From: Acidobacteriota bacterium
GTDB lineage: Bacteria > Actinomycetota > Acidimicrobiia > Spongiisociales > ZC4RG35
Assembly: GCA_004356805.1 (NCBI GenBank)
Contig: SMXW01000045.1
Location: 20,216-84,215 of the forward strand
Direction of reading: 5' to 3'
Length of the DNA stretch: 64,000 bases
The notes below the pieces were generated by a model that was not told the origin of the DNA, searched no databases, and worked only from the letters and a program-made list of their open reading frames with translations. Position 1 is the stretch's first letter, and the number at the start of each line of letters is the position of its first letter. The translations under genes were made by a program, and so were the position numbers. Below are positions 10,142 to 34,102 of the stretch, piece by piece.

Positions 10142-10143
10142 CG

Positions 10144-11238: not shown

Positions 11239-13661
11239 GAGGTCGTCACCCTGACCACCGGATCCGACCCTAGGGATGACGCACCCTGCTGGTTGAACGG
11301 GACGTAGACAACCCCGGTCGGAGTGCCCTCGTCGAGGACACAGGTGAATTCGCCCTCCCCGCGAGTCGTCACCACCTTGATGGTGTGTCCGTCCCGGGCG
11401 CCGATGCTCGGAGCGTCGCCCGGGTTGAGATGAGCAACAGCGCCCGGGCCGAGTTTGTGTAACGACGGAGAGTGCTGGAGTCGAACTCCGTTGTCGTACA
11501 TGACCCGCGCGACGTGCAGAGTCAACTTTGCCGTCGGAGCCTTGGACCCCTGAAGGGCCACCGGAATGTGGTTTATCGCCTGAGCGCCATGAATGGGGAC
11601 AACAATGCCATCACGGTGATCCCATTCGAGAGAGTCCCACGTCAGATCCTCATAGGCCGGAGAAACCGTGGCTATCTCTTTTGTGATCCCTTCCGCGGAA
11701 GCGAGACCGAGCGAGACCCCCATTCGGGTCGCGATGTCGTCGAGAATGGCCCAATCAGTGCGCGCTTGTCCCGGAGCAGGCCGAATCTGGTTGACCTTCT
11801 GCACCCGTCCTTCGACGTTGGTGACAGTTCCCTCTTTCTCCGAGAACCCCGATGCCGGGAGGATGACGTCTGCGTTCCGATTCGAATCGTTCAGAAACAG
11901 ATCGATGGCGATGACGTACTCGGCGGCGTCGAGAGCATCGACCGCTATGGACGGCTCAGGCAAGTCGTTGATCGGATCGGCGCCGACGAGCACCAGGCCT
12001 CTTACTTCTCCGGAGTCGAGTCCCTGGAGAATCTGACGTGTGTCTCTGCCTATGACGGCAGGAATGTCGCCCCAGGATGCTGCCAGGTTGGCGCATCCGA
12101 TCGTGTCGAGACCGACCCTTCCCGGCAACAGATCGGGGGCGAGGCCCATGTCAAGAGCGCCGTAGGTGTTGGCCCGACTGTTCAGTGGCATCAGCTTGGC
12201 GTGGACAGCCTTCCGCCGAACCAGGGCAGCGACCGACTCGGCTAGCTGCGGCCCGTCGGCATGACTTGCGATACCGACCAACGCCACCACCTTCTCGGCG
12301 GCAAACGCCTGGCTGACCTCGGGATGATCGCCATTCGCCAACTCGTCGAGTAGCTCGTACCCACCCCCGGGTCGGTAGGTGAGCTTGTGGCTGGCCCGGT
12401 CGTCGAGCCCTGTCGCCCTCGGATGGATGACCACCAGAGTGGCTCCCAACTCCTGTGCTGCACGTCGTACGCGCAGATACAGGGTGGGGTGCTCTTCCTT
12501 GAGGTCGGGTGCCCAGACGACGATGGTGTCGGCGTCATCGATGTCAGCGATTGTGGCGCGATCTACCGACGCAGAAAGGAAGTGAGACGCCAGCGCATCG
12601 TCCAGTCGGGCGTCGACATTGTTTGATCCCAGGGCCACCCGGGCGAATTTGGATATGGCGTATGCATCCTCGTTTGTCCCCTGCGCTCCACCGATGACGG
12701 CCAACGCCTCGCCCCCGTCTTCGCTCTTGATGAGGTCGAGACGGTTGGCGGCGGTGTCGATGGCCTCCGTCCAGCTGACTTCGACGAGCTCGCCACCCCT
12801 CCGAACCAGTGGCGAGGTCAAGCGCTGATCGGATCGCAGGTACTCGTACCCGAATCGAGCTTTGTCGGAGAGCCAACCGTGATTGGTGGCATCGTTGTCG
12901 ACGCCTGTGTAGCGAAGAATCTCGTTCTGGCTGGCGTGGATCTCAATCCGGGGGTGTGCGGTGTCCTGGAGAGACGAGCTCTCCACCTTCTGAAGATCCC
13001 ACGGCCGTGCCCTGAATCGATATGGCTTGGCGGTGAGGGCGCCGACCGGGCAGATCTGGACGGTGTTGCCCGAAAAGTAGGAGGAGAACGGCAGGTCCGG
13101 GAAAGTATTGACCTCGGTGGTGTTGCCTCGATGCTGGAACTCAATCAGCGGATCGCCGGAGATCTCCTCGGAGAAGCGTGTGCACAGGGCACAAAGGATG
13201 CAACGCTCCCGGTCGAGCAAAACGAGTTCGGAGATCGGGATTGGTTTCTCGAATGAGCGCTTGATCTCGACAAAGCGGCTCTCCCCTGGTCCGTAGGCAA
13301 GAGCCTGATCCTGCAACGGGCACTCGCCGCCCTTGTCGCACACGGGACAGTCCAGGGGATGATTGGCGAGAAGGAACTCGAGGATCGCCTCCTGAGCCTT
13401 CTTGACCTCTTCGCTCTCCGTGTCGACAACCATTCCGTCCGATACCGGACTGGTGCATGCCGTCACCATCATCGGTCCTCGGGGAGTCTCGATCTCAACA
13501 AGACACATACGGCACATCCCGACAGGGCTCATCCGCTGGTGCCAGCAGAACCGCGGGATGTAAGTGCCCTCGTCCTGAGCTGCCTTGATCAGGAGCTCGC
13601 CGGCGGGGACCTGGCTCTCCACACCGTTGATGGTGACGGTGACCAATTTCGCTTCGCTCAT
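11235..13661 (-). CDS. nuoG: NADH-quinone oxidoreductase subunit G (Fe-S, molybdopterin-like fold)
   Basis: 808 aa. N-terminal 2Fe-2S and 4Fe-4S Cys clusters (CWHQRMSPVGMCRMC; CPVCDKGGEC). Confidence 0.9.
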   Translation of the reverse strand: MSEAKLVTVTINGVESQVPAGELLIKAAQDEGTYIPRFCWHQRMSPVGMCRMCLVEIETPRGPMMVTACTSPVSDGMVVDTESEEVKKAQEAILEFLLANHPLDCPVCDKGGECPLQDQALAYGPGESRFVEIKRSFEKPIPISELVLLDRERCILCALCTRFSEEISGDPLIEFQHRGNTTEVNTFPDLPFSSYFSGNTVQICPVGALTAKPYRFRARPWDLQKVESSSLQDTAHPRIEIHASQNEILRYTGVDNDATNHGWLSDKARFGYEYLRSDQRLTSPLVRRGGELVEVSWTEAIDTAANRLDLIKSEDGGEALAVIGGAQGTNEDAYAISKFARVALGSNNVDARLDDALASHFLSASVDRATIADIDDADTIVVWAPDLKEEHPTLYLRVRRAAQELGATLVVIHPRATGLDDRASHKLTYRPGGGYELLDELANGDHPEVSQAFAAEKVVALVGIASHADGPQLAESVAALVRRKAVHAKLMPLNSRANTYGALDMGLAPDLLPGRVGLDTIGCANLAASWGDIPAVIGRDTRQILQGLDSGEVRGLVLVGADPINDLPEPSIAVDALDAAEYVIAIDLFLNDSNRNADVILPASGFSEKEGTVTNVEGRVQKVNQIRPAPGQARTDWAILDDIATRMGVSLGLASAEGITKEIATVSPAYEDLTWDSLEWDHRDGIVVPIHGAQAINHIPVALQGSKAPTAKLTLHVARVMYDNGVRLQHSPSLHKLGPGAVAHLNPGDAPSIGARDGHTIKVVTTRGEGEFTCVLDEGTPTGVVYVPFNQQGASSLGSDPVVRVTTS

Positions 13662-15037
13662 TCAGCCACTTCTGGGGGGCGACCCCCAGACCCCCGCTCG
13701 CTGCTCGGCATGAGGTCCTTATCGCTGGGGCGGTCAACTTCGCTGGTTTTCTCGGACGTCTCTCGCGTTTGAGTCTTGTATGGACATCCTCCGTTGCTGA
13801 CATGGGAGTCGACCTCGTCACGGAAGTAGTCCCTGAGGGCGATGATCGGAGAAACCGCCGATGGGCCAAGCGGGCAAATCGTCGTCATCTTGGGCGGCCA
13901 GACGAGACCGATGCTGATGCCATCTGACACGTCAACAAGGAGATCGAGGTCGACCGCTCGACCTTGACCCTCCTCAATGCGACGCAGAATCATCTCCAGC
14001 CACGTCGTCCCCTCGCGACAGGGTGTGCACTGACCACATGATTCGTGTGCGAAGAACCGGATAACCCTTTCGGCAGCCTTGACCATGCAGGTGTCCTCAT
14101 CCATCACGATGACTGCTCCAGAGCCCAACATCGATCCCGCGGCAGCTGTCGCGTCCTTGGTGATCTCGAGGTCTAAGTGCTCCTCTGGGACGAACCAGGG
14201 GGCGGAGGCCCCGCCGGGAATCCATGCCTTCAGTCCCTTGCCGTCGGGAATGCCGCCCCCGACGTCATAGATCAACTCACGCCAGGTGATCCCGTGCGCC
14301 AGTTCGTAGTTCCCGGGACGGTTGACGTGCCCCGACAGCGAGGTCATGAAGGTCCCGGTGTCGGCGTTGCCGGTGAGTCCTGAGAACTCTCCCGCTCCCA
14401 TAGCCAGTATGTGAGGGAGGTTGGACACAGTCTCGACGTTGCTGACGATGGTGGGCATCATGTAGAGGCCCTTTGCCGCCGGGAAGTAGGGGGGCTTCAG
14501 CCTCGGCTCACCTCGTTTGCCTTCGAGAGAGTTGATCATGGCTGTCTCCTCGCCACAGATGTATGCCCCACCGCCGAGATGAACGGTTACCTCTAGGACG
14601 TAGTCGGAGCCGAAGATTCCTTTGCCGAGATAGCCCTTGGCATACGCCTCGTCGACCGCAGCTTGGACCCTGCGCGCAGGCTTGGAGTACTCGCCCCTTA
14701 TGTAGACAAAGGCGTGGTGAACCTCGTTGGCGATCGAGGTGATGATGATCCCCTCGATCATCTGGTGGGGGTCACGCTCCAGAAGCTGGCGGTCTTTGAA
14801 CGTCCCGGGCTCCGACTCATCGGCGTTGACGACGAGGTAGGAGGGTCGGGCCGGAGCCAGGAGGCTCCACTTGAGGCCGGCGGGGAATGCTGCACCCCCG
14901 CGGCCGAGCAAACCGGACATCTTGATCTCTTCGATGAGCTCGTCGCGAGTCAGTCCCAGGGCCCGCTTGCCCTGCGTATAACCCCTTGTGGACTCGTACC
15001 TGGCGATGGTGTGCGAGTCGCTCGGATGGTCGACCAT
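13658..15037 (-). CDS. nuoF: NADH-quinone oxidoreductase subunit F (FMN, NADH-binding)
   Basis: GGAAFPAGLKW and the CGQCTPCREG Fe-S motif. Start set at MVDHPSD. A TTG at 15052 is an alternative. The upstream 38 codons of the ORF call are spurious. Confidence 0.85.
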   Translation of the reverse strand: MVDHPSDSHTIARYESTRGYTQGKRALGLTRDELIEEIKMSGLLGRGGAAFPAGLKWSLLAPARPSYLVVNADESEPGTFKDRQLLERDPHQMIEGIIITSIANEVHHAFVYIRGEYSKPARRVQAAVDEAYAKGYLGKGIFGSDYVLEVTVHLGGGAYICGEETAMINSLEGKRGEPRLKPPYFPAAKGLYMMPTIVSNVETVSNLPHILAMGAGEFSGLTGNADTGTFMTSLSGHVNRPGNYELAHGITWRELIYDVGGGIPDGKGLKAWIPGGASAPWFVPEEHLDLEITKDATAAAGSMLGSGAVIVMDEDTCMVKAAERVIRFFAHESCGQCTPCREGTTWLEMILRRIEEGQGRAVDLDLLVDVSDGISIGLVWPPKMTTICPLGPSAVSPIIALRDYFRDEVDSHVSNGGCPYKTQTRETSEKTSEVDRPSDKDLMPSSERGSGGRPPEVAE

Positions 15038-15063
15038 CCGCCTTGTAACCAAAAGCGGTGTTG

Positions 15064-15687
15064 TCAATCCGCTGCCTCGCTGCCAACGGTGCCAAGGGGC
15101 TGGAAGGCCGGGTAGGGGCCAATGGCGCCACTTTTCTCGCTGATGCCCCAATCGAAGCTGGTTCTGCCGCCGAACAGCGCTTGCATCTCGTCGGAGTTCA
15201 CCACGTCAGGGCGTGCTTTCTTGAGCCACCGAACCAACTGCCGCGCTTTCTCCGGTGAGACACCCTCGATCAGTTCGTAGTTGATCTGAACGGCGGGGGC
15301 GCCTCCGCAGGCACCGATGCATTCGACGTGTTCGACCGAGAGAAGGCCGTCATCGTCGGTCTCCCCGTGTGGAACACCGGACTCGTCCTCGACGGCATGA
15401 AGAACATCGTCACCACCGAGCAGCATGCACGTGATCGACGTGCAGCAGGAAACCAGATACTGCCCGGTTCGCTCTCGTTTGTACATCGTGTAGAAGCTGG
15501 CCACCGATAGAACCTGAGCCGGTGTGATTTCACACCATCGGCCCACTTCCTCCATCCCGTCACCCGTCAGATAACCCTCTTCGGACATCGCCAAGTACAG
15601 CAGAGGCATGACAGCCGACCGTTTCTCCGGGTATCGGGCGATAATCTGGCGAGCCCGCTCCTGAGTGCCTTCGGACCAGCGACTCAT
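15064..15687 (-). CDS. nuoE: NADH-quinone oxidoreductase subunit E (2Fe-2S)
   Basis: 207 aa. Cys motif CCTSITC...CIGACGGAP. Confidence 0.9.
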   Translation of the reverse strand: MSRWSEGTQERARQIIARYPEKRSAVMPLLYLAMSEEGYLTGDGMEEVGRWCEITPAQVLSVASFYTMYKRERTGQYLVSCCTSITCMLLGGDDVLHAVEDESGVPHGETDDDGLLSVEHVECIGACGGAPAVQINYELIEGVSPEKARQLVRWLKKARPDVVNSDEMQALFGGRTSFDWGISEKSGAIGPYPAFQPLGTVGSEAAD

Positions 15688-17039
15688 CGGTCGACGTCCC
15701 CCATGACCGGATCGATCGAGGCGATGGTGGCGACGGTGTCCGCCATGAGACTGTCGGCCATAGCGATCGGTAGCGATTGGAGGTTGTAGAAGGAGGGTCC
15801 TCTGGTGTGCATGCGGTAGGGAATGGCCTCCCCATCGGAGACCAGGTAACAGCCCAACTCGCCGCGGGGTGACTCCACTGCAACATAAGTCTCTCCAGGT
15901 GGAACCTTGAAGCCCTCCGTGAAGAGTTTGAAGTGGTGGATCAGCGCCTCCATCGACTCATCTATCCGGGCTCGCGGTGGTGGCGTGATCTTTCGATCTC
16001 CAACTCTGAAATCACCCTTTGGCATGCCATCCATGACCTGTTCAACGATCTTCAGTGACTCCCACATCTCGTCAATTCGCACCCGATACCGGTCGTAAAC
16101 GTCACCGTTCTCGCCTATCGGCACATCGAACTCGTAGTTCTCGATGCCGGAGTAGGGAAATACCTTGCGGAGATCCCAATCGACCCCTGCCGCCCGAAGT
16201 GCCGGACCTGTGATGCTGAAGGCGATGGCCTCCTCGGACGAGATGACACCCACTCCCTTGGTTCGCGACAGCCAGATCGGATTCTCTTTGAGCAGGTCGT
16301 CGTACTGATCAAACCGCCGTGGAAAATCCTTCAGAATCCCGGCGACATCGTCCTTCCATCCCGGTGGCAGATCGGCGGCGACACCTCCGGGTCGGATGTA
16401 GTTGTGATTCATCCGAAGTCCGGTGGTCTTCTCGAAAAAGTCGAGGATGGACTCCCGCTCCCGGAACCCGTAGATGAATATCGACAGGGCGCCCATATCC
16501 AAGCCGTTGGTAGCCAGAGCAACGAGGTGCGACGAAACGCGATTGAGCTCGGTCATCAGTACCCGAATTGCTGCCGCCCTTGGCGGCACTTCTATGTCGA
16601 GAAGAGTCTCCACGGCAAGCGAAAAAGCGAGTTCCTCGTGAAAGGGGGCCAGATAGTCCATCCGAGTGACGTTGGTGGGACCCTGGCCAAAGGTGAGCTG
16701 CTCCGCAGTCTTCTCCATTCCCGTGTGGAGATATCCGATGATCAACTTCGTCCTACGAATGACCTCACCCTCGAGCTCGATCTGAAGTCGGAGCACGCCG
16801 TGCGTAGATGGGTGCTGCGGGCCCATGTTTATGATCATCCGCTCGTCGTCGGTCGCCTCGTCGTCGAACAGATAATCGTCGTCGACGACTCTGCCGAACT
16901 GGCTGTCGAGTCGGTCAGGCGTCTCGTCGGCAGAGATCTCTTGAGCACCTTCGTCAGTAGGCTGAATCTGCGGCTCCTCGGAACCGGCAACCCACACATC
17001 CACGATCTCGGTCGGCTCCTTCTTGGTTTCGTCTGTCAT
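15684..17039 (-). CDS. nuoD: NADH-quinone oxidoreductase subunit D
   Basis: NMGPQHPSTHGVLRL signature. Acidic N-terminal extension of about 60 aa. The ATG at 17039 follows the nuoC stop. Confidence 0.9.
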   Translation of the reverse strand: MTDETKKEPTEIVDVWVAGSEEPQIQPTDEGAQEISADETPDRLDSQFGRVVDDDYLFDDEATDDERMIINMGPQHPSTHGVLRLQIELEGEVIRRTKLIIGYLHTGMEKTAEQLTFGQGPTNVTRMDYLAPFHEELAFSLAVETLLDIEVPPRAAAIRVLMTELNRVSSHLVALATNGLDMGALSIFIYGFRERESILDFFEKTTGLRMNHNYIRPGGVAADLPPGWKDDVAGILKDFPRRFDQYDDLLKENPIWLSRTKGVGVISSEEAIAFSITGPALRAAGVDWDLRKVFPYSGIENYEFDVPIGENGDVYDRYRVRIDEMWESLKIVEQVMDGMPKGDFRVGDRKITPPPRARIDESMEALIHHFKLFTEGFKVPPGETYVAVESPRGELGCYLVSDGEAIPYRMHTRGPSFYNLQSLPIAMADSLMADTVATIASIDPVMGDVDR

Positions 17040-21769: not shown

Positions 21770-22378
21770 ATGAGCGGGATCTCCCACGCCACAGTCTCCA
21801 GACTTCCTCGCTACCTTCGGCTCCTCGAGGAACTGGAGGGCGCTCACGAGACGGTGAGCTCTGATGACCTGGCAGTTGCTGCGGGGGTCAATGCCGCCAA
21901 CGTTCGGCGTGACCTTTCCGATCTCGAATTTCAGGGCACGAGAGGAGTGGGGTATTCGGTTCCCTCTTTGGGTGATCGAATAAGGAGGGAACTCGGAATC
22001 GAGAGCCGGCGACTGGTTGCCATCATCGGGGCCGGCAACCTGGGCACGGCGCTGGCACGCTACGACGGACTAGCCAAACGGGGATTCGACGTGACCGCCA
22101 TCTATGACACCGATCCCAACAGAGTCGGACAGAGCATCGGAGATGTGCAGATCCAGCGAATGGAAGACATGCCAATGGACTGCAAGGTCGGGTGTTTCGA
22201 CATGGCGATCCTGGCCGTCCCCGCCAACGCGGCCCAGAGCGTGACCGATCTCTTGGTCAAGGAAGGTGTTCACTCGATCCTCAATTTCGCACCTGTCCGA
22301 GTGAGTGTTCCCGAAGGCGTGGCAGTGCGTCAGGTCGACCTGTCGACCGAATTGCAGATTCTCAGCTACTACGGCTGA
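21770..22378 (+). CDS. rex: redox-sensing transcriptional repressor Rex
   Basis: N-terminal winged helix (TVSRLPRYLRLLEEL). Rossmann NADH-binding domain (IIGAGNLGTALA). Confidence 0.85.
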   Translation: MSGISHATVSRLPRYLRLLEELEGAHETVSSDDLAVAAGVNAANVRRDLSDLEFQGTRGVGYSVPSLGDRIRRELGIESRRLVAIIGAGNLGTALARYDGLAKRGFDVTAIYDTDPNRVGQSIGDVQIQRMEDMPMDCKVGCFDMAILAVPANAAQSVTDLLVKEGVHSILNFAPVRVSVPEGVAVRQVDLSTELQILSYYG

Positions 22379-22416: not shown

Positions 22417-22779
22417 TTATGAGTCGCCCTGCCGGGCTTCCTCGTATTGGTGGAGAGCAACAAGAAACACGAAGAAGATGACCAGAGCGACGGCCAAGAA
22501 GGTGATCGGGATCACTCGGATCTCAATGGCGTTGAGCCCTTCGATGTTGTCCGGCTTTGGCCCTCTCGGGGCGTAGATGACAAACAGCAGGGATGTGAGG
22601 CTCAGCCACCCGAACATGGCAGCCCCGGAGACCAGAAATCCGAGCTTCTTGCCCAGGTTGGTGTAGTTGAACAGATACATCGCGCCGTAAAAGAGGACAA
22701 CGGCGCCGATCGTCAGCAGGACTCCCGTAACGAAGAGGTTGGCCGAGAACAGCGATCTGAAGAGCTCACGGAAGAACAT
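22417..22779 (-). CDS. small membrane protein (3 TM), last gene of the Rieske/cyt b/cyt c operon
   Basis: 120 aa, hydrophobic. Stop-start spacing to the cytochrome c gene is 4 nt. Confidence 0.45.
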   Translation of the reverse strand: MFFRELFRSLFSANLFVTGVLLTIGAVVLFYGAMYLFNYTNLGKKLGFLVSGAAMFGWLSLTSLLFVIYAPRGPKPDNIEGLNAIEIRVIPITFLAVALVIFFVFLVALHQYEEARQGDS

Positions 22780-24477: not shown

Positions 24478-25392
24478 CTAGGCCTCTTCGTCGCCGCTGG
24501 TGGCGCCGATGCAGCTCGGACCTTGGGGGTAGTTGACGGAGAGTGCAGGGGCACGCGAGGTCTGGATGACACTGCCCGTCTTGATGATGAATCGGCCGTC
24601 TCGGACTTCTACGACAAATCGGTCGAGATTTCGCGGCGCCGGACCGGCGAAGTACTCGCCGACCGAGTTGTACTTCGATCCGTGGCAGGGGCATTCAAAG
24701 CCTTGCGAAGGCGCGCACCAGGGAACCCGACATCCAAGGTGGACGCAACGCTGAAACAGCGCCATGAGCCCGTCGGTCTCGACCTGCTTTCCTGCGTACT
24801 GATCGGAGAGAGAGGTTGGTGCCGGCACCACGTAAGCCTTGGCCTCCGGTATGAAAAGGGGGAGAATCGAACCGGTCGGTGTGAAAACCGCACTCTTCAC
24901 CTCGGCCAGGGAGCCTGCATCGATATCGGACCCGAAGCCGCCGCTCAGTCTTGGCCAGAAGAACGCAAGGGAGTTGATTCCCATTATTCCCAGGAATGAG
25001 AAGAAGGTTACGTTCAGCGCCCGGTTGAAGAACTGACGACGGGTGACACCCGCCTCCTCTGGCGAAACCTCCACAACCCTTTGTGTCTCGACAACCTGGA
25101 TCGCCACCGGGGACGGCTCCGGCTCCGCGACCCCTACCTCGACCTCGACCTCGACCTCATCACCGGTCTCTTCACCGGTCTCTTCTATCACCGGAACGGG
25201 TATCGGTTCGACCCGCACCCCGACCATCGACTTGTCGGCCTTGAGGGTCTCCGATGACACGCCTGCGGTTGGATCGACCACGTCGGCCGACTCGTCCGAC
25301 TGCGAACGTCGGAAAGCGATGGTGAATGCTCCGACTGCGCCCAGAATGGCGAAAAGAGCCACACCAACCAGAACCAGGTTGCCAAAGCTCAC
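24478..25392 (-). CDS. Rieske [2Fe-2S] iron-sulfur protein of a cytochrome bc/b6f-type complex
   Basis: CVHLGC...CPCHGS Rieske boxes. N-terminal TM, then an acidic EV/EETG repeat linker, then an internal twin-arginine-like TRRQFF segment. Confidence 0.85.
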
Positions 25393-26354
25393 TCGAAGTC
25401 CACCCAGTCCTTGAGGTCATCGAAGAAGATCCCGTCCTTCCACGGGTAAGAGAAGTTGAAACCCCTTCCCCTGAACAGGACCCCGAGGATGGTGAGGGTC
25501 GCTGCACCCGAGATGAAAATCGAATAGAGAAGGATGGCGAACTTGCGGTCGCTGGGCCGTGTCGACGGGTTGCGGTCGACAAAGGGCACCATCATGAACC
25601 CGATGATTCCGACAATGGTGGGCACGGTCACTCCAGCGATCTGCGGGTCGAAATAGCTGAGAAGCTCCTGAAGCCCGAGGAAGTACCAGGGGGCCTTTGA
25701 CGGGTTTGGTGTTGCGTTGAAGTTGGCCGGATCGAGCAGAGGCGAGTGGATTACCACCGCCATTATCACCAGAAGCGCCGTAATGGCCAGGAGGGCACCG
25801 AATTCGACGAGCATCAGGTGCGGCCACGTGTTGACCTTGTCTTGGGGCTCCGGCTTCACGTCCTGAATCGCTCGGGCCTTGACGACAGTGAGAAGACGCT
25901 GAGTCCGGACACCGTCGGGGAGACCGGTGGGCGGGACCGACGGGCGGGGACTCACCAGGCCGGCAACCTTGGCGTTATCCGTGCCGTGGTCTTCGGCGGT
26001 TGGGGAATCCTCAGGTTTGTCTTCAACAGCTACTGGACCCCGTTCTTCAACCTCCGCCGCCGCAGATGGAAAGGCCTCGTCGTCCGACGACGGGGATGCA
26101 GCCACAACCTCTTCCACAACCTCCTCTGTCGACGGCGGTGCCTCTTCCACCGGATCGTCAACCTGCTCCGCGGGGGGCTCCGACCTGCTTTGCTCGTCCG
26201 GGAAGGGTGCTTCTTCGACGATCTCTGCCTGAGGAACCTCTACCGCCGGGCCCTCGCCCTTCATCTCAGCCAACACCTGTTCCACCGGCACCCCAAGTGC
26301 CTTGGCCTTCGCCTCCGCAGATCTCCTCAGGAGACTCTCTGGGATATCAACCAC
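25389..26354 (-). CDS. cytochrome b C-terminal half (b6f subunit IV-like) with long cytoplasmic N-terminal extension
   Basis: [12 protein letters not shown] (PEWY-type motif) and 3 TM. N-terminal 190 aa are acidic/Pro-rich and begin with the shared [14 protein letters not shown] module. Confidence 0.75.
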
Positions 26355-26363
26355 AAGAACTCC

Positions 26364-27140
26364 TCATAGGGGACCCGAAATGCCGCCGTCCTTGCGGACT
26401 CGCCAGAAGTGGATGGACATGAAAATGACGATGATGAACGGAAAGAAAAGAACGTGGAGGACGTAGAAGCGAAGCAGACCCGCCGCGCTCACCTCCACGT
26501 CGGCGAGGAGAACGAACTTGACCTGATCACCAACGACCGGAACGAATCCGGCCATGTTGGTTCCGACGGTGACCGCCCAAAGTGCCAGCTGATCCCACGG
26601 CAGGAGATAGCCCGAGAAGGAGAGCAACAGTGTCAGAAACAGGAGGACCACTCCGATCACCCAGTTGAACTCGCGTGGCGGCTTGTAGGCGCCGTGATAG
26701 AAGACACGACTCATGTGAAGAAACACCGAAAGGACCATGAGGTGCGCTCCCCATCGGTGCATGTTTCGCACCAGCGACCCGAACGCAATGTCAGTGGATA
26801 GCTCCTGGATGTTGACATACGCCAGCTCGGCGGTGGGCGTGTAATAGAACATCAGAAAGATGCCGGTGATTGTCAGGTGGATGAAAAGGAAGAAGCTGAG
26901 CCCACCGAGACAGAGCGTGTAGGACAGCTTGACCGCGTGCCTCTTCACCTTCACCGGGTGGAGGTGATAGAGAACGTTGTTCATCACGACATAGGAGCGG
27001 TTTCTCGGACTATCCGAGTAGCCCTGTTTGAAGGGCGAACCGGGACGAAGAATCGCACCGACCACCTGTGAGCTCCACAGCTTGTCGTTTGTCTCTTTGA
27101 TCCGGTCCCTGAGTCCGGTTTTGCCGTTGCGGTTAGCCAA
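26364..27140 (-). CDS. cytochrome b6-like (N-terminal half of cytochrome b, bis-heme)
   Basis: Conserved heme-ligand His pairs in helices B and D (RNMHRWGAHLM...LHMSRVFYHG; FYVLHVLFFPF). 258 aa, 4 TM. Confidence 0.85.
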   Translation of the reverse strand: MANRNGKTGLRDRIKETNDKLWSSQVVGAILRPGSPFKQGYSDSPRNRSYVVMNNVLYHLHPVKVKRHAVKLSYTLCLGGLSFFLFIHLTITGIFLMFYYTPTAELAYVNIQELSTDIAFGSLVRNMHRWGAHLMVLSVFLHMSRVFYHGAYKPPREFNWVIGVVLLFLTLLLSFSGYLLPWDQLALWAVTVGTNMAGFVPVVGDQVKFVLLADVEVSAAGLLRFYVLHVLFFPFIIVIFMSIHFWRVRKDGGISGPL

Positions 27141-27157
27141 TTAGTGCGCTCCCCTCG

Positions 27158-27607
27158 CTACCAACGCATACCGTACGAGTATCCGTTCTTGAAATCACGC
27201 TGACCGGTGTCGAAGTCCCACGGGCGGCGGTCGAGGCCCAACTCGGTCGCCTGGTCTGCAAGCGAGCCTTCGAACTTGCCCAAAGAGATGACGTTGGTCG
27301 GACACCGGTCGATGCACAACGCGCATCGGGTGCACTCATCCTCATCGACGATGAAAAAGCCGAAGTTCTGGTCATCCTCGGCCGGATGGTCGACGTTGAC
27401 TCCTTCGGTGATTGCATCCAGAGACAGGTAGTGAATGCACTTCCAGGGACAGATATCGACGCAGCCTTCGCAAAGGATGCATTCCACCTGGTCGATGTGG
27501 AGGAACTGCTTGGAACGCAGCTTGTCCTTGAAATAGTCACCTTCGACCAGAGCAAGCTGATAGTCATCCCTGATCGGCGGGATCTCGTCGATGACTCCAC
27601 GGGGCAT
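27158..27607 (-). CDS. 2x[4Fe-4S] ferredoxin-type protein co-operonic with the Rieske/cyt b genes
   Basis: CILCEGCVDICP and CTRCALCIDRCP. Start MPRGVIDE overlaps the stop of the upstream membrane gene (ATGA). The upstream 123 codons of the ORF call overlap that gene out of frame. Confidence 0.7.
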   Translation of the reverse strand: MPRGVIDEIPPIRDDYQLALVEGDYFKDKLRSKQFLHIDQVECILCEGCVDICPWKCIHYLSLDAITEGVNVDHPAEDDQNFGFFIVDEDECTRCALCIDRCPTNVISLGKFEGSLADQATELGLDRRPWDFDTGQRDFKNGYSYGMRW

Positions 27608-28239
27608 CAGGCGTCTCCCTTGACCAAAGGACGCCCATATGGCGACTTCCGCTCGGACGGTTGGGCACCTGGTGGACGACCTTCCTTGATCTTCTGAATC
27701 TGAATCCCCAGAACCGCCCCGAACCCAAGCAGCACGATGTGATAACCCATCGAGATCGAGTCCTTGAGGACCGCGTAACTGATCTCGATGGTGTTGCCGA
27801 GGACGAGGGCCGGTGGGATGACGAGCGCCACTCTTTGCGACGACCAATCGAGTTCGGTCTGGGCGAAGGTGAGCCACTCTGAGGGGGCTATCCCAAAGAA
27901 GAAGAGGAGAGCGAGCCAGGTGATCATTGCCGCGACCGTGGCGCGAGCCCAGGTCATCCTCTGATTCAGAACCCAAAGAAAAGTAGCTCCGACGAGAGCG
28001 AATGTAGTGGCACCCAGAATGATCAGATAGCCGATTCCCAGCCAGACGGTGCCTCGCGGAAACCAGTTGAGGTAATCGACGGTCACCACAACATCAACGC
28101 CATCGATGAGCTCCGTCTCCGGAAAGCTCGACCAGTGGATCCAGACGACCCCGACCACCAGTCCAAGGACACCGAGAAGAAGCAATCCAGATCCGATTGC
28201 TTGGCGGCGTCTGTCGCTTAATTCTCCGAGGCGATACAT
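27607..28239 (-). CDS. membrane protein (about 5 TM), first gene of the Rieske/cyt b operon
   Basis: 210 aa, hydrophobic, no motif. Translationally coupled to the ferredoxin gene. Confidence 0.5.
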   Translation of the reverse strand: MYRLGELSDRRRQAIGSGLLLLGVLGLVVGVVWIHWSSFPETELIDGVDVVVTVDYLNWFPRGTVWLGIGYLIILGATTFALVGATFLWVLNQRMTWARATVAAMITWLALLFFFGIAPSEWLTFAQTELDWSSQRVALVIPPALVLGNTIEISYAVLKDSISMGYHIVLLGFGAVLGIQIQKIKEGRPPGAQPSERKSPYGRPLVKGDA

Positions 28240-28408
28240 GGTCAGGTGCAGTCCGGACGTGTGTAGCTGGTTGTTGGGGCGTTTCTACCACAAGCAGGGC
28301 CCTCTTAGATAACCCAACCTGTGGCACTAACTGGGGTCAATGTAGCGGCGTCGTGATTTGTGGAAGTAGTTATGCTCCCGCCCGTCTCATTTCCGACGAG
28401 GAAGACGC

Positions 28409-29845
28409 TTGGCTGATACCCCAAACTCGGACAATCGAACACTTCACGTTGTGGGAGAAGACGACAGTCGCGTCGCCGCAAATCATCTCGTAACCGGTGC
28501 CTTCTTTCTCGTGCTCGGTGGGGGTCTCCAGTTGCTCTCCCTGATGTCACTCCGTTTCGCCGACATTTTTCCCATTACTTACGGGCGTCTCGAGCCCATG
28601 GCCAACCTCACCCTGATGATCGGGTTCGTCTCCATTTCGCTGATCGGAGGCATCTACTACGTCCTTCCTCGGCTCACCGGGGCAAGGTTGAGTGTCAGCA
28701 GCCTCGCCAGGTTTGAATTGTTCGGAATCGCCGGTCTGGTGCTGGTTGGTTTGCTGGCGATCGGATTCGGGTTCGGCACAGGTGGTCAGCCGTTCGGTCT
28801 TCCGTGGTGGATCAATCTGCCGATGACCCTTCTGCTCGCCGTTCCGGCGCTGGTCACCATTGGAACCATCTCGGACCGCAGCGAGAACCGAAGCTACGTG
28901 ACTCTTTGGTTTGTCCTCGGTGGAGTAATTTGGCTGCCCCTCCTCTACCTGGCCTTCTCCTCGGGCGACCTCCCATATCTCTCATCAACTGCTGTCGCCT
29001 ACACCGACGTGTTCTTCTCCGCCGGCTTCGTCACGATGTTTCTCTTTACGGTCGGAACGGGGCTCTTCTATTACACGATGGTCAGGGAGCTCGATGTCTC
29101 CCTCGCTAGTCGCCAACTTGCCCTCGTCGGGTTTTGGTCGCTGGGATTCGCCGCGGTCTGGTGGGGAACTGCCCAACTCATGTTCGGGCCCGGACCTTCG
29201 TATCTTTCCGGTGTAGGGGCTGCCCTCGGTCTCGCGTTCCCAATCGGAGCACTGGCAAACGCAGCAAACGCATCGCTGACCCTCGAGGGCGCCTGGGACA
29301 AGGTCCGAGACAGGCCCGACCTGAGAGCCGGTGTCCTCGGTCTCTATCTCGGGGTTGGGGTGGCAGTGATGGCAGCACTTGCCGGTTTCCGGTCGATCGC
29401 ATCGGTAGCGGCGTTGACAGGCTTCTGGCAGGCCATCGAATATGCCGCCATCTCAGGGGTTGGCACTCTGCTCATCGCCAGCGTGAGCTTCTCAGCCGTC
29501 CCTCGTCTGTTTGGCAGGGAGCTTTACACGAGGAGAACGAAGACCTTCTTGACCCTGACACTCACCGGATCAGTCGGGGTTCTCGTCTTCATGGCCGCCT
29601 CCGGTCTTGTCTCGGGCTACTCATGGATCGGCGGCTCCAATTCTGGTGCCTATGTCGACGTCGGAGAAGGTTGGGGCGCCGGTTTGGGAGGGAGCGTCGA
29701 AACAATGATGTTGATCGCTGTCGGGTTCGCCATCGTCACCTTCTTCGGCCAGCTCGCCTACGCGGCCACCATCATCGGAACCGTCACGCAGGGAAAGGCC
29801 GCCACACAGGAGGTTCTTGTAGCAAAGGCCACTGTCGATGAGTGA
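28409..29845 (+). CDS. 12-TM membrane protein with heme-copper-oxidase subunit-I-like helix pattern but lacking the canonical His ligands
   Basis: 478 aa and 12 predicted helices. N-terminal ANHLVTGAFFLVLGGGLQLL and YYVLPRLTG segments resemble COX1 helices I-II and PRLN loop. Only 2 His in the whole protein. Homology is an inference. Confidence 0.5.
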   Translation: MADTPNSDNRTLHVVGEDDSRVAANHLVTGAFFLVLGGGLQLLSLMSLRFADIFPITYGRLEPMANLTLMIGFVSISLIGGIYYVLPRLTGARLSVSSLARFELFGIAGLVLVGLLAIGFGFGTGGQPFGLPWWINLPMTLLLAVPALVTIGTISDRSENRSYVTLWFVLGGVIWLPLLYLAFSSGDLPYLSSTAVAYTDVFFSAGFVTMFLFTVGTGLFYYTMVRELDVSLASRQLALVGFWSLGFAAVWWGTAQLMFGPGPSYLSGVGAALGLAFPIGALANAANASLTLEGAWDKVRDRPDLRAGVLGLYLGVGVAVMAALAGFRSIASVAALTGFWQAIEYAAISGVGTLLIASVSFSAVPRLFGRELYTRRTKTFLTLTLTGSVGVLVFMAASGLVSGYSWIGGSNSGAYVDVGEGWGAGLGGSVETMMLIAVGFAIVTFFGQLAYAATIIGTVTQGKAATQEVLVAKATVDE

Positions 29846-30590
29846 CCTTCTGGCTGCAACCTCCACCACACTCGGGGTGCCGGAGGACCTGGTGCGTCGT
29901 TCGGCCGAGGCTCGCGCCGCCGAGGCCGGCTCGAATGTCGATGAAATTCTGACCGCGTGGGGTGGAGGCGAGGCCATAGTCGTCACATCCTCTGCCGCAC
30001 CGGAACCACCTCCCTCTGTCGAAGTGAGCTCCGAGCCACCGGCTCAGCAAGAAGATGTCGCCCCTGACATCGTGATTGAGACTCCGCCGGCTCAAACCGC
30101 CCCCATGGCCACTGCTCCCCCAGGCACTTACCAGCCACCTGTCCTTGTTGGGGCGCCGGACAAACCTGGAATGATCATCCTCGGTGCGATCGGGCTGTTT
30201 CTGGTCGTCCTCATGATGGGGCTGATTGGCCCTTCGGTTGCCACAGACGAGCCTGGTTCCCGCACCAGCGAGATCCCGTACTCACAGACAGCAGTCAATG
30301 GTCAACGTGTCTATGCGTCTCTCGGATGTGCCGCCTGTCATACCCAGATGGTGCGCCCGGTCGTCGCGGATGTCGGGCTTGGGGCCGTGACCTTGAATGA
30401 CACCAATCAAGTGGTGGGAGATCGACGATTCGGGCCGGACCTCTCTGATGTGGGGACACGGATGACATCGAGTCAGTTGGAGGCGACGGTCACTGGGGAT
30501 ACCACGAAGCACCCGCCGCACAACCTGGCTCCAAAAGATATGACCGCCCTGGTTGCGTACCTTTTGGAATCAAGGAATTCGGAAGGATAG
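29838..30590 (+). CDS. membrane-anchored monoheme c-type cytochrome
   Basis: CAACH heme motif. Central TM anchor. N-terminal module LGVPEDLVRRSAEARAAEAG shared with two other proteins. Confidence 0.7.
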   Translation: MSDLLAATSTTLGVPEDLVRRSAEARAAEAGSNVDEILTAWGGGEAIVVTSSAAPEPPPSVEVSSEPPAQQEDVAPDIVIETPPAQTAPMATAPPGTYQPPVLVGAPDKPGMIILGAIGLFLVVLMMGLIGPSVATDEPGSRTSEIPYSQTAVNGQRVYASLGCAACHTQMVRPVVADVGLGAVTLNDTNQVVGDRRFGPDLSDVGTRMTSSQLEATVTGDTTKHPPHNLAPKDMTALVAYLLESRNSEG

Positions 30591-30592
30591 GG

Positions 30593-31621
30593 ATGAGCGA
30601 ATTCATCGCGACTGCCGCGGCCGCCCTGGGAATACCTGAGGATCTGGTGCAACGCTCAGCTGAGGCGAGGGCGGCCGAGACTGGAGGGTCGGTCGATGAT
30701 GTTCTGGCGGCGTGGGCCGGAGGGGGCGTGGTGGCGGCAACAACGCCCGCATCCGAACCGGCGGAAGTGACCGTTCCCGAAGAAGAGGATTCCCAGCCGG
30801 AGCCGGTTGCAGCGGCCCCGGCTGCTGTCGTGGTCGAGACTCCGACTGCGATGCCTCAGCCCACAACGAGAGCCCCGGTGCCCACCGAAGTGACACCGGG
30901 TGAGGCAGCGCACCTCCCGGAGGTGATAACCGTGCCAACCGCCGGCATCAGGGAGCAGACGAGCTTCGTCATTCCCAAGTGGCTGACGGCTGTGTTTCTC
31001 ATCGTCCCGCTGTTCGCCTTGTTTGCGCTCGGTGGTGCCTCCACCGGTGAGTGCGGCGAGGCGACCGAGTTGATGACGGACGTTGTGACCGGGAACATCG
31101 TCAATTGTGATGGGTCCGAATTCACCGGTCAGTCTGTCGGCGGGGGCGGAATCGACTACATCGCTCTGGGTGGGAGCATCTATGCGGGGGGCGCAGTAAC
31201 GGGTGTCAATTGCGCCGGGTGCCATGGGGTCAACGGTCAGGGGTCAGCCACCTTCCCGGCACTAAGCGGAGCGCTCACCACATTTGGGGCCTGCGTCGAC
31301 CACATCGTGTGGGTGGGACTTGGGTCCTCGGGATTCCAGTCAGCAGGGGAGAGCAGCTACGGCGACACCTCAAAGCCGATCGCCGGCGGTATGCCCTCAT
31401 TCAGCAGCAATCTGACCGAGGAACAGATCACGGCGGTTTCCGCTTTCGAGCGTGTCCGATTTGGCGGTGGCGACCCGGACGAGGTTCTGATCGACTGCGG
31501 TCTCGCCGAGTCCCCGGACGACGGGGAACAGGGCACGGGAGACGGTGGAGATGACTCCACGGAGAGTGACTCCACGGAGAGTGACGAAGAGACCGAGGCC
31601 TCGGTCCGTCACCTCGGCTAA
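30593..31621 (+). CDS. membrane-anchored monoheme c-type cytochrome (tandem paralog)
   Basis: CAGCHG heme motif. TM anchor. N-terminal LGIPEDLVQRSAEARAAETG module. Acidic C-terminal tail. Confidence 0.7.
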   Translation: MSEFIATAAAALGIPEDLVQRSAEARAAETGGSVDDVLAAWAGGGVVAATTPASEPAEVTVPEEEDSQPEPVAAAPAAVVVETPTAMPQPTTRAPVPTEVTPGEAAHLPEVITVPTAGIREQTSFVIPKWLTAVFLIVPLFALFALGGASTGECGEATELMTDVVTGNIVNCDGSEFTGQSVGGGGIDYIALGGSIYAGGAVTGVNCAGCHGVNGQGSATFPALSGALTTFGACVDHIVWVGLGSSGFQSAGESSYGDTSKPIAGGMPSFSSNLTEEQITAVSAFERVRFGGGDPDEVLIDCGLAESPDDGEQGTGDGGDDSTESDSTESDEETEASVRHLG

Positions 31622-31878
31622 CCCCACTCCAAACCCAGGAACGCCTTCTCGAGCGCCTTGCGATCCCCGATGACCCCCTCGGCAAGCACCTCGTCACCAG
31701 GACCCAGAACCACGGGAATTCTCACTCCATAGAGAGACAGGAGGGTGTCATCACCGTCGACATCGATCTCCTCGATGACTACGCCCACCTTCATCGCCGC
31801 CCACTCGACCAGCGGTCGGGCGTCATTGCACAAGTGACATCCGGGACGGGTGAGGAACCGAATGGAAAAATTACTCAA
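31618..31878 (-). CDS. glutaredoxin-like protein (DUF836-type, CxxC)
   Basis: 86 aa. CHLC motif near the N-terminus. Thioredoxin-fold pattern. Confidence 0.6.
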   Translation of the reverse strand: MSNFSIRFLTRPGCHLCNDARPLVEWAAMKVGVVIEEIDVDGDDTLLSLYGVRIPVVLGPGDEVLAEGVIGDRKALEKAFLGLEWG

Positions 31879-32168: not shown

Positions 32169-32993
32169 TCATTCAGCTTTGGGTGCTCTTCTCCCCGCCA
32201 GGGTGACTGACATGCCTTCGGCAAGGTTGAGGGCCTCGACCGCACGACCACCCCGAACGGCCAACGCGACCAAACCCGAGGAGTCGACGTGGAGCATTGG
32301 CTCACCGTCCTCAACATCGGAGTAGGACGTAACCCATTTGACCGAGTGCAGGGTTGACCCGATTTTCACGGTGACGGCTTCACCCGGGCTGATCCCGACA
32401 GCATCGAGGTCTTCGGGAGAAACATTCGTCTGCACGTTGCCATAACCGTCGATCCACCAAGCTTCTCCGGCGACTGTCGAATTGACGATTTCTGTGAGAG
32501 GAAGGAGCATCGGCGTGATCTCATCGCCGGCCAACGTGGGTCCAAGATCCTCGAGGGCGGCGTTTCCTGAAGCCAGAAGTGCCGCAGCCGGTGCAAACAC
32601 ATCTCTCCCGTGGAATGTCTCTCCGGGTGAGGGGATCATCGCCTCTGGGCTCTCAATCGAAACGATCTGAGAGGCGCCCCCGACCATGGCAACACCCGGC
32701 GAGAGAAGTCCGTTGTCGGGGCCCACGAAGAAGCCCCAGGGTGTTTTGGCCGCGATCGCCCTGCGATCGGAGCCGACACCGGGATCGACCACAGCTAGAC
32801 ATACCCCCTCCGGCAGATATTGAATGGCTCGGGTCAGAGAAAGCGCACCAGCTCTTACGTTTCCTCTGGGGATCTCGTGTGCGATATCGATGACCGATGA
32901 CTCCGGGGCAAGCTTTGCCAGCACACCGTGAACCACTCCCACGAACTCGTCGTGATAGCCAAAGTCGGAGAGAAAACTGATCGGAAGGGACAT
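32169..32993 (-). CDS. SAM hydroxide adenosyltransferase family protein (DUF62; fluorinase/chlorinase-like fold)
   Basis: ISFLSDFGYHDEFVGVVHGV N-terminal signature. Start set at MSLPISF. The upstream 52 codons of the ORF call are Arg-rich run-in. Confidence 0.7.
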   Translation of the reverse strand: MSLPISFLSDFGYHDEFVGVVHGVLAKLAPESSVIDIAHEIPRGNVRAGALSLTRAIQYLPEGVCLAVVDPGVGSDRRAIAAKTPWGFFVGPDNGLLSPGVAMVGGASQIVSIESPEAMIPSPGETFHGRDVFAPAAALLASGNAALEDLGPTLAGDEITPMLLPLTEIVNSTVAGEAWWIDGYGNVQTNVSPEDLDAVGISPGEAVTVKIGSTLHSVKWVTSYSDVEDGEPMLHVDSSGLVALAVRGGRAVEALNLAEGMSVTLAGRRAPKAE

Positions 32994-33187
32994 CGCTGGC
33001 GACGGTAGTGGCCTGTAGCACAAATGGTGTGAGTGTGTCTCCGAGACATCGACGTTCGATTCGCAAGGAGGCACAACCAAGCTGCATCCGCTCGTGCGGC
33101 AAGGCAGAGGACGCCGCAGGCGACGTCGAGGGCCGGAGAGACGCCGCAATCACTCGTAAGTGGGACCAAACCTGGTGTGTCGTGGAA

Positions 33188-34102
33188 ATGACGTCCGCGT
33201 ACCGGCCCTATATTGCCGGAATGACCGAATTCTCATATGACGACCTGGCCCAGGACGTCGCAACAAGCAACGTCTCGATGCTGATCGGAGGCCTGGACAC
33301 CGGCAAGACGACCCTCGCTCTCCAGGCCGTGCGTCTAGCGCTTGCTTCCGGGCGGACACCCGTCATCGTCGATGCCGACGTTGGGAACTCGACCATCGGT
33401 CCACCAGCGTGTGTAGGGATGAAAGTATTCAACTCGCTGGATGACCTCGAAAAACTCGACCAGCCCGACGGACTCCACTTCGTCGGCACCGTGACGCCGT
33501 CACGGTTGGTCCTCCAGCACGTCGTCGCCACGGCTGTGATGGTCGAAAGGGCAAAGCAGGTCGGAGATGTCGTGATCATCGATACGACGGCGGTGGCGTC
33601 AGGTGTGTCCGGTGAGACTCTCAAGTACCACAAGTCGGAGCTCTGTCGACCCGAAAAAATCATCGCCCTTCAGCATGGGGAGGAGATGGAGCCCGTTGTC
33701 GGCATGCTGCGACGGTTTCTCGGCATAGAAGTGATCACCGCACCTACCGACCCGGCTCTCCTTCCGATGACACCCGACGGACGAGCTCGCAAACGCGCGG
33801 ACGGCTTCGCGGCAGCACTCCAGCCGCCTCTGGACCGATGGAAAGTGCGCCCAACCGTTTTCGCTCCGACCGTCCCGGTCGGCCTCAATCTTGGGAGGCT
33901 CGAGGGTGTCCTCGTGGGTGTCCAGGGCTCGGGAGGCGGTTGTCTGGGGCTTGGTGTCCTGGACCATGACGACGGCATACTGCGGGTGATGACCAATGTC
34001 GGTGAAGGCATGACCGGGCTCCGGCTCGGTTCTATGCGCCTCGACACCAGCACATACGCATCGACGATGGTCAGCCTTCGCGAGGTCATGTTCGGCGTGT
34101 AG
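33188..34102 (+). CDS. Clp1/Grc3-like P-loop polynucleotide kinase domain protein
   Basis: Walker A GGLDTGKTTL followed by the VIVDADVGNSTIGPP (DxDxGQ-like) clasp typical of the Clp1_P family. Start uncertain (33188 or 33221). Confidence 0.5.
   Translation: MTSAYRPYIAGMTEFSYDDLAQDVATSNVSMLIGGLDTGKTTLALQAVRLALASGRTPVIVDADVGNSTIGPPACVGMKVFNSLDDLEKLDQPDGLHFVGTVTPSRLVLQHVVATAVMVERAKQVGDVVIIDTTAVASGVSGETLKYHKSELCRPEKIIALQHGEEMEPVVGMLRRFLGIEVITAPTDPALLPMTPDGRARKRADGFAAALQPPLDRWKVRPTVFAPTVPVGLNLGRLEGVLVGVQGSGGGCLGLGVLDHDDGILRVMTNVGEGMTGLRLGSMRLDTSTYASTMVSLREVMFGV

Follow-up and report, generated by a model that had tools for sequence, protein, structure and literature searches.

The peripheral-subunit-binding domain (PSBD; Pfam E3_binding, PF02817) of the E2 chains of 2-oxo-acid dehydrogenase complexes acts as a docking site on a tether; in these chains, the number of domain modules differs between species. 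Dockerin, SLH, and LysM modules are extracellular, have known ligands, and in each case let their various host proteins bind one scaffold. In the Rhodobacter CIII2CIV supercomplex, tethered membrane-anchored cytochrome c_y/CcoP link bc1 and cbb3 (PMC7876108). Here we analyzed a 64-kb stretch of DNA (64,000 nucleotides; contig SMXW01000045.1, positions 20,216 to 84,215; hereafter the window) from a bacterium placed by GTDB in the class Acidimicrobiia. In it, three proteins encoded by two neighboring respiratory operons, namely a PetD/subunit-IV-like protein (subunit IV), a CcoO/FixO-like cytochrome c (CcoO), and a second cytochrome c (cytochrome c2), begin with the same short module. This module appears to be an undescribed, lineage-specific tethered interaction domain on otherwise recognizable respiratory subunits. 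Acidimicrobiia are abundant in oceans and soils; to our knowledge, their respiratory chain has hardly been described at the protein level.

The module and its predicted fold

A sequence-only reading of this DNA had noted the same N-terminal motif on the three proteins, between positions 26250 and 30700, and had not recognized it as a described domain. The motif was indeed found on all three, and the copies lie where they had been placed, although the third extends about 27 nt beyond that span, to 30727 (Table 1). Sixteen columns are invariant among the three copies. A hidden Markov model (HMM) built from them and run against the six-frame translation of the 64 kb retrieved only these three (E 1e-21 to 4e-20); no fourth copy was found in the window (next best E = 1.4). 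In leave-one-out searches, an HMM of the two cytochrome c copies retrieved the subunit IV copy at E = 7e-6 (next best 3.9), and the subunit IV copy alone retrieved both cytochrome c copies at about 3e-4 (next best 1.1). In both cytochromes, the core starts at residue 11-12, behind an additional short helix that forms part of the domain.

Searched with a profile, 1.84 billion cluster representatives gave 398 matches at E<=1e-3, 121 of them at E<=1e-10; a word-index protein search with the short module yielded truncated fragments only. The best 137 matches were used to extract further copies. The 185 unique copies from these proteins aligned over 37 columns, essentially gap-free, with the consensus a.G[MIV]PE.L[VL].RSAEA[RK]AKA.G.[SP]V[ED].[VI]LAE[WM].G for the 33-residue core. 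Eight positions were near-invariant: P5 (97%), R11 (97%), S12 (98%), A13 (93%), A15 (100%), A17 (98%), G21 (92%), and L28 (92%).

AlphaFold2 modeled the cytochrome c2 copy of the window with a pLDDT of 86.9 (helices at residues 3-7, 11-25, and 29-36) and a copy with a full-length first helix with a pLDDT of 94.2 and a pTM of 0.74 (helices 4-15, 19-33, and 37-45). According to these models, the complete domain is a three-helix bundle of about 45 residues. Its last two helices would form the conserved, helix-turn-helix-shaped core, with the first helix being optional. Judged by the gap-free alignment and its predicted fold, the module is a true, small, autonomously folding helical domain rather than low complexity, and it clearly does not behave as the ubiquitous linker without positional conservation that the sequence-only reading had set as the outcome refuting its proposal.

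Searches for a known counterpart were negative throughout, in agreement with that reading. No Pfam match was obtained for the three window copies, 32 diverse cores, or 21 extended copies, and no NCBIfam match for the module when the hosts and the multi-copy proteins were searched. Profile searches of the PDB gave a best E of 0.23 for the core and 0 matches for the extended domain, and Foldseek searches of the PDB with both models gave best E values of 4.2 and 0.94, mostly to designed helical repeats. Full-text literature searches returned no paper holding the motif strings or describing the domain, and searches of the literature on Acidimicrobiia respiration returned nothing on it or on the CcoN-like protein without metal ligands described below.

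Hosts, topology, and conservation

Copy number was examined in 140 sequences, comprising the 137 matches and the three window proteins: 86 carried one copy, 26 two, 16 three, 8 four, 3 five, and 1 seven, one of the four-copy entries (P0154) being a repeat-rich false positive. The tandem copies (1-7) are spaced by Pro/Ala-rich linkers, and in each sequence long enough to include a membrane helix, every copy precedes the first such helix; the sole apparent exception, P0128, is a CcoN-CcoO read-through gene call. All classifiable representatives (53/53) belong to five membrane families, namely subunit IV, the CcoO-like cytochrome c, cytochrome c2, a small bc-operon protein, and an unannotated multi-helix family, and the rest are truncated or frameshifted fragments. 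At least five distinct membrane proteins with links to respiratory gene clusters thus carry the module. The small bc-operon protein is module-free in the window (22417-22779), and its homologues P0047 and P0051 bear 7 and 3 copies, respectively (tblastn 8e-25). The multi-helix family (P0119, P0149, P0176, and P0183) is absent from the window; its gene is convergent with a caa3 operon in locus L082 and lies beside a CtaG gene in L061. In L082, this host occupies 9839-11134 (+) and the caa3 operon 11437-16476 (-), with COX2 (fused cytochrome c), COX1, COX3, and CtaG. Members of the family (P0149, P0183; L082, L061, L081) have one cytochrome-type module, and their gene is preceded by two conserved genes, one encoding a small secreted protein and the other a membrane protein of 440 aa.

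When one genome per species was scanned with a degenerate pattern, at least 438 copies were confirmed among at least 598 matched stretches in species-representative genomes. The 80 loci retrieved were combined with two window-identical contigs to give 82 loci. Nearly all of the 80 are labeled as Acidimicrobiia or Actinomycetota metagenome-assembled genomes, including Candidatus Actinomarina. Differing labels were seen among the matching loci (L012, L016, L017, L024, L030, L033, L036, L047, L051, L060, L063, and L066), naming Acidobacteriota, Boseongicola, or Gammaproteobacteria; such labels probably stem from errors in binning or naming and not from real occurrences outside Actinomycetota. Exactly three tagged open reading frames (ORFs) were present in 59 of the 82 loci, and the tagged ORFs classified across all of them comprised 71 CcoO, 66 cytochrome c2, and 60 subunit IV.

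The gene order of the window recurs in most loci long enough to cover the cluster. It runs from Rex through the genes for the small protein, di-heme cytochrome c, Rieske protein, tagged subunit IV, cytochrome b6, ferredoxin-like protein, and membrane protein to the divergent CcoN-like, tagged CcoO, and tagged cytochrome c2 genes. The co-occurrence with Rieske/cytochrome b6 operons that the sequence-only reading had asked about therefore extends, in other genomes, to a shared divergent cluster. In a reduced form of the locus (L087, 8873-12173; also L084 and L086), only the membrane protein, cytochrome b, and subunit IV with 3-5 modules are encoded, next to Rex; no Rieske, cytochrome c, ferredoxin, or CcoN-like genes were found alongside in these three loci. 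L087 is syntenic with the window on both flanks (FAD oxidoreductase, Rex, SAM hydroxide adenosyltransferase-like, CLP1_P-like, asparaginase, RsiG, and M23 genes), and the Rex gene adjoins the subunit IV operon whether the cluster is of the full or the reduced type. In L085 (5015-8793), CcoN and CcoO are fused into one protein of 641 aa. The fusion leaves CcoO no free N-terminus and hence no module, and here the copy number has shifted between subunits, with one module on subunit IV, none on CcoO, and five on cytochrome c2.

In the window proteins, the module is followed, as the sequence-only reading had described, by a Pro/Ala/Glu-rich linker and then by a membrane helix. The linkers contain 14-24% Pro, 12-17% Ala, and 9-14% Glu, and the first hydrophobic helix follows at residue 185 in subunit IV, 112 in CcoO, and 131 in cytochrome c2. 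The net charge of these tethers is -23 in subunit IV (aa 35-190), -8 in CcoO (66 aa), and -10 in cytochrome c2 (80 aa). The tethers are acidic in every orthologue, with a median net charge of -9 each for CcoO and cytochrome c2 and -24 for subunit IV, and they measure 48-211 residues (median for subunit IV, 163 aa). The module on its own ranges from neutral to slightly acidic (net charge -1 to -3), which together with the acidic tether argues against binding to DNA or anionic lipid. Heme attachment to CxxCH domains needs export, and a PEWY-type loop must face the positive side of the membrane. Since a single helix separates the module from the exported CxxCH domain, the N-terminus of each cytochrome should be cytoplasmic, and the APWY loop on the positive side, together with the homology with PetD, places the N-terminus of subunit IV on the negative (cytoplasmic) side. 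From these topology rules we infer that the module is cytoplasmic, and so the export of the CxxCH domains and the PetD homology both support the location that had been proposed.

Comparison of orthologues showed that the module is under strong purifying selection, as judged from pairwise identities. Identity in the module exceeded that in the membrane/heme core of the same host for subunit IV (0.90 vs 0.83), CcoO (0.66 vs 0.54), and cytochrome c2 (0.74 vs 0.58), and the module was more conserved than its own host core in 82-98% of orthologue pairs. For subunit IV, the mean pairwise identity of 90% was obtained with 55 orthologues. Two sequence types were distinguished, each conserved across species: the subunit IV type and the cytochrome type, the latter with the consensus ALG.PE.LV.RSAEARA.ETG..VDEVLAAWAGG. 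The two types are about 41% identical, both within genomes (0.406) and across them (0.416).

The CcoO and cytochrome c2 modules behave differently from that pair. In loci L003-L082, they were more alike within a genome than across genomes, both in amino-acid identity (0.79 vs 0.69) and in codon identity at identical residues (0.52 vs 0.385; permutation p = 2e-4), and in a few genomes their codon identity reached 0.9-1.0, that is, near-identical DNA. This pattern indicates occasional gene conversion between the adjacent CcoO and cytochrome c2 modules in some genomes, and its tolerance suggests that these copies are functionally interchangeable. In the window, copies 2 and 3 (cores at 29871-29969 and 30626-30727) use the same codon at 12/24 identical residues. 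As half of the identical residues differ in codon, recent gene conversion was ruled out as the source of the similarity between these two copies, which is instead upheld by selection on the protein.

The gene cluster and the CcoN-like protein

The features of the window are listed in Table 1. The ORF map and the Pfam matches bear out the earlier observation that the two operons are divergently transcribed, with the bc cluster on the minus strand and the CcoN-like/cytochrome c cluster on the plus strand.

Table 1 Module copies and genes of the cluster. Positions are nucleotides of the window; aa, amino-acid residues.
Feature	Position	Strand	Description
Module copy 1 (subunit-IV type)	26250-26354	-	aa 1-35; without the optional first helix
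Acidic Pro/Ala/Glu/Val-rich tether of subunit IV	25845-26249	-	about aa 36-170; closes with a conserved pre-helix segment
Module copy 2 (cytochrome c type)	29838-29969	+	aa 1-44; first helix present; MSDLLAATSTTLGVPEDLVRRSAEARAAEAGSNVDEILTAWGGG
Module copy 3 (cytochrome c type)	30593-30727	+	aa 1-45; first helix present; MSEFIATAAAALGIPEDLVQRSAEARAAETGGSVDDVLAAWAGGG
Rex-type redox-sensing repressor	21770-22378	+	Put_DNA-bind_N and CoA_binding; adjoins the cluster
Small membrane protein, 120 aa	22417-22779	-	last gene of the bc operon; module-free in the window
Di-heme cytochrome c, 564 aa	22783-24477	-	bc operon; without module; Pfam Cytochrome_CBB3 56.9 bits, two stretches
Rieske protein	24478-25392	-	bc operon; without module; Pfam Rieske 30 bits
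PetD/subunit-IV-like protein, 321 aa	25389-26354	-	module, tether, 3 membrane helices, APWY (PEWY-type) loop
Cytochrome b6-type protein	26364-27140	-	directly upstream of subunit IV; Pfam Cytochrome_B 158.5 bits
2x[4Fe-4S] ferredoxin-like protein, 149 aa	27158-27607	-	two CxxCxxCxxxC motifs
Four-helix membrane protein	27607-28239	-	first gene of the bc operon; function not assigned
CcoN/COX1-like 12-helix protein	28409-29845	+	first gene of the operon bearing module copies 2 and 3
CcoO/FixO-like mono-heme cytochrome c, 250 aa	29838-30590	+	module, 66-aa tether, one membrane helix (112-130), CAACH at 164
Second mono-heme cytochrome c (c2), 342 aa, CcoP-like domain	30593-31621	+	module, 80-aa tether, helix 131-149, CAGCH at 207

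The subunit-IV-like protein matched Pfam Cytochrom_B_C with 29.8 bits (cut-off 20.7) and has membrane helices at 185, 241, and 272, with the APWY loop at residue 221. Together with the adjacent cytochrome b6 and the Rieske gene in the same operon, this PEWY-type loop identifies a Rieske complex with a split cytochrome b (b6 + subunit IV). Two module-free subunits show features of their own. In the Rieske protein, an additional membrane helix at the N-terminus (residues 7-25) is followed by about 100 acidic residues and then by a Tat-like RRQFF motif and the usual anchor; the acidic stretch is a further long acidic cytoplasmic segment of the bc complex. The di-heme cytochrome c contains an insert of about 250 residues between its heme domains, holding bacterial thrombospondin type-3 (calcium-binding) repeats such as DTDDDGLSD and DTDGDGISD (Pfam TSP3_bac, 25.2 bits).

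The ferredoxin-like gene lies between the first membrane-protein gene and that of cytochrome b6, its start overlapping the preceding stop by 1 nt, and encodes the only soluble product of the cluster. Because a listed 272-aa ORF (27158-27976) runs into the upstream gene, the true start is the shorter one. The gene was present in all 68 loci covering its interval, and a Fer4_7 match was obtained on the identical gene in locus L001. An iron-sulfur subunit at the cytoplasmic side of a Rieske/b6 complex is unusual.

On the plus strand, CcoO was assigned to the CcoO/FixO family from its Pfam FixO match of 42.4 bits (cut-off 29.6); the NCBIfam ccoO equivalog score of 39 bits, against a cut-off of 200, marks it as a divergent member. 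Cytochrome c2 matched Pfam Cytochrom_C (36 bits) and Cytochrome_CBB3 (27.2 bits). Downstream of it are a small glutaredoxin-like ORF with a CxxC motif (31618-31878, -), an SAM hydroxide adenosyltransferase-like gene (32169-33149, -), and a CLP1_P-like P-loop gene (33008-34102, +), the last two being syntenic with L087.

The CcoN-like protein aligned with Pseudomonas stutzeri CcoN (3mk7_A) over 412 residues (E = 9e-21). When the ligands of heme b, heme b3, and CuB were examined in this alignment, all six histidines were found to be replaced (H60 by A65, H207 by A205, H257 by A255, H258 by Q256, H345 by Y345, and H347 by A347), and the cross-linked tyrosine was replaced as well (Y251 by V). The protein holds just two histidines overall and scored 110 bits with the NCBIfam ccoN equivalog, whose cut-off is 583. 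The same replacements dominate in 63 orthologues (L003-L082), in which the glutamine at the H258 position is invariant. The identity of a cbb3-type (C-family) heme-copper oxidase was therefore rejected: without metal ligands, the apparent cbb3 operon cannot encode a heme-copper oxidase. The CcoN-like protein looks like a 12-helix non-catalytic scaffold that would hold two membrane-anchored c-type cytochromes. Automatic annotation of the locus as a bc complex plus a cbb3 oxidase is thus misleading, and metabolic inference from metagenomes is affected, for example where high-affinity oxidase capacity is scored from ccoN/ccoO matches.

Proposed function and comparison with known systems

We propose, with belief and doubt evenly balanced, that the module is a tethered cytoplasmic protein-protein docking handle that brings complexes to a common partner or to each other. 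A docking function is favored by the combination of a small, rigid, conserved domain, a long flexible acidic tether that is itself poorly conserved, non-homologous but functionally linked hosts, a variable copy number, and exchangeable copies. Membrane subunits would display the module in the cytoplasm at the free end of the acidic Pro/Ala/Glu-rich tether, and each copy would bind either one common partner, cytoplasmic or membrane-peripheral, or a further copy of the module. Several complexes would thereby be held at, or assembled around, one common site; those gathered would be the Rieske/cytochrome b6 complex, the CcoN-like/cytochrome c module, and the membrane protein encoded beside the caa3 oxidase, with the copy number (1-7 in tandem) setting avidity. 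Candidate partners encoded nearby are the ferredoxin-like protein and Rex, and the former stays a candidate because its gene accompanies the cluster in 68/68 loci. Two tagged proteins on a non-catalytic scaffold and another beside a real caa3 oxidase would fit an organizing role, short of proving it.

Several observations weigh against docking. The reduced loci (L084, L086, and L087) keep 3-5 subunit IV copies without cytochrome c or CcoN neighbors, which argues against an obligatory pairing of subunit IV with cytochrome c; any docking there would be homotypic or to a partner encoded elsewhere. The two sequence types do not co-vary within genomes, and so nothing in the sequences points to a specific pairing of subunit IV with cytochrome c. 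Most of the invariant residues could have a purely structural role, given how small the domain is. In addition, the comparison of module and host core is biased, most for cytochrome c2, because the loci were retrieved via the module itself.

The first two of these points also bear on a specific sub-case of docking, the supercomplex formation raised in the sequence-only reading, in which subunit-IV-type and cytochrome-c-type modules would pair as helical bundles and leash the bc complex directly to the CcoN-like/cytochrome c module. In almost every locus, tagged subunits are encoded by both of the divergent operons, the two types are each kept across species, and the small invariant residues A13, A15, and A17 are spread over more than one face of the helix, which may suit packing between helices. 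We nevertheless regard such direct pairing as fairly unlikely, since, beyond the missing co-variation and the reduced loci, copy numbers are unmatched (in L085, one on subunit IV, none on CcoO, and five on cytochrome c2), and some subunit-IV-like hosts (P0049 and P0091) bear cytochrome-c-type modules. A role in biogenesis or topology, in which a folded N-terminal domain retains the long acidic tail in the cytoplasm or recruits targeting or insertion machinery, is improbable in our view. It would make sense of a first membrane helix that emerges only after 110-190 residues, and of the module always standing N-terminal to that helix in N-in proteins with strongly acidic tails; work on N-tail translocation has established that acidic tails can cross the membrane driven by the proton-motive force. 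For this purpose, however, one copy would suffice, so that 2-7 tandem copies with linkers of their own are hard to explain; the existence of the tether is left unexplained, the module is more conserved than the catalytic cores, and no other ORF of the window, membrane proteins included, bears it.

A degenerate helix-turn-helix (HTH) that binds nucleic acid or a regulator such as Rex, and so tethers or sequesters its partner at the respiratory membrane, is very improbable. The classical pattern A-x3-L-G-[IVM]-x4-[LV] is matched by the stretch from the first helix through the turn to the second helix, Rex is adjacent in both cluster types, and weak HTH Pfam matches were obtained on multi-copy proteins (Xre-like-HTH, PF20432; HTH_23; Sigma70_r4_2; HTH_31; AbiEi_4; HTH_3). 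The strongest summed match, Xre-like-HTH on P0048, reached 39.5 bits over 4-5 repeats, but 0 stretches passed alone, and HTH membership was rejected because no single copy exceeded a family threshold (best single-copy E = 0.008-0.2) and the superposition was poor: Foldseek comparison with HTH domains of the PDB (434 repressor, SinR, Cro, and Xre) gave E values of 3-10 and TMq of 0.27-0.35, with a root-mean-square deviation of about 6 Å. The window copies gave no HTH Pfam match, the most conserved copy, that of subunit IV, is without the first helix, and the would-be recognition helix carries acidic residues, in a module of slightly negative net charge on a strongly acidic tether. There is a negligible chance that the similarity is fortuitous, or reflects a low-complexity stretch rich in Ala and Arg that has no function by itself. 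The module does have a high Ala content and adjoins linkers of low complexity; but this explanation was ruled out by the leave-one-out retrieval, the indel-free alignment of 185 copies with its near-invariant positions, the confident structure prediction, and the same position in three host families throughout the class.

Within the docking proposal, a bolder version is that the module acts as a multivalent cytoplasmic "Velcro", whose self-association, or binding to one scaffold, gathers the bc complex, the cofactor-less pseudo-CcoN with its two c-type cytochromes, and the caa3-associated protein into respiratory patches. We hold this to be rather doubtful. If true, the copy number of 1-7 would tune clustering, and the electron-transport chain would be organized via flexible cytoplasmic tethers and not by membrane or periplasmic contacts, for which we know of no described precedent and literature searches gave none. 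Being present throughout the class and better conserved than the catalytic cores of its hosts, the domain marks something indispensable to these cells. If the module is a docking handle, it offers a direct experimental way into the organization of the Acidimicrobiia respiratory chain and could show how membrane complexes are co-localized from the cytoplasmic side. It merits a family model of its own in the domain databases.

Among known domains, the tri-helical HTH proteins (Xre-like, sigma-70 region 4) resemble the module in their three short helices and the A-x3-L-G-hydrophobic turn signature; they differ from it in that the module is acidic, lacks the first helix in subunit IV, and has no single-domain profile match. 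UBA-like three-helix bundles are similar in size (about 40-45 residues) and topology, and the UBA-like domain of OTUD7A (2l2d) appeared in the Foldseek list (E = 2.5, TMq 0.45), but the fold match was not significant and no Pfam UBA match was found. For the HeH/SAP/Rho_N group, the 32 and 21 module copies gave no SAP, Rho_N, or LEM match in Pfam at E<=10. Dockerin, SLH, and LysM modules share its general design, being small modules that occur singly or in tandem, with Pro/Thr- or Pro/Ala-rich linkers, on hosts that are functionally related but non-homologous; they are extracellular, whereas the module here would be cytoplasmic, and they have no sequence relation to it. The Rhodobacter supercomplex has in common with this locus the flexible tethers on membrane-anchored subunits and the combination of a bc complex with a cbb3-type module (PMC7876108). 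There, however, the tethered domains are periplasmic heme carriers that move electrons (PMC7876108), whereas the module is predicted to lie in the cytoplasm and shows no cofactor motif, and the CcoN homologue of the window is without metal ligands.

The closest parallel is with the PSBD, which is likewise a helical domain of 35-45 residues flanked by flexible Ala/Pro-rich linkers. In this comparison, the linker composition of the module was 17-21% Ala, 16-24% Pro, and 14-17% Glu. The likeness is one of design alone: homology was rejected, since hhalign gave a probability of 0.7% over 7 aligned columns against six hand-entered PSBD sequences, no PSBD match was found in Pfam at E<=10 for the window copies or the 32 and 21 further copies, and the GTG..GR loop that joins the two PSBD helices is absent from the consensus. 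The module also differs in its hosts, which are membrane respiratory subunits, and in its arrays of up to seven copies. As an analogy and not as a family membership, the PSBD of E2 chains offers the best working model for the module.

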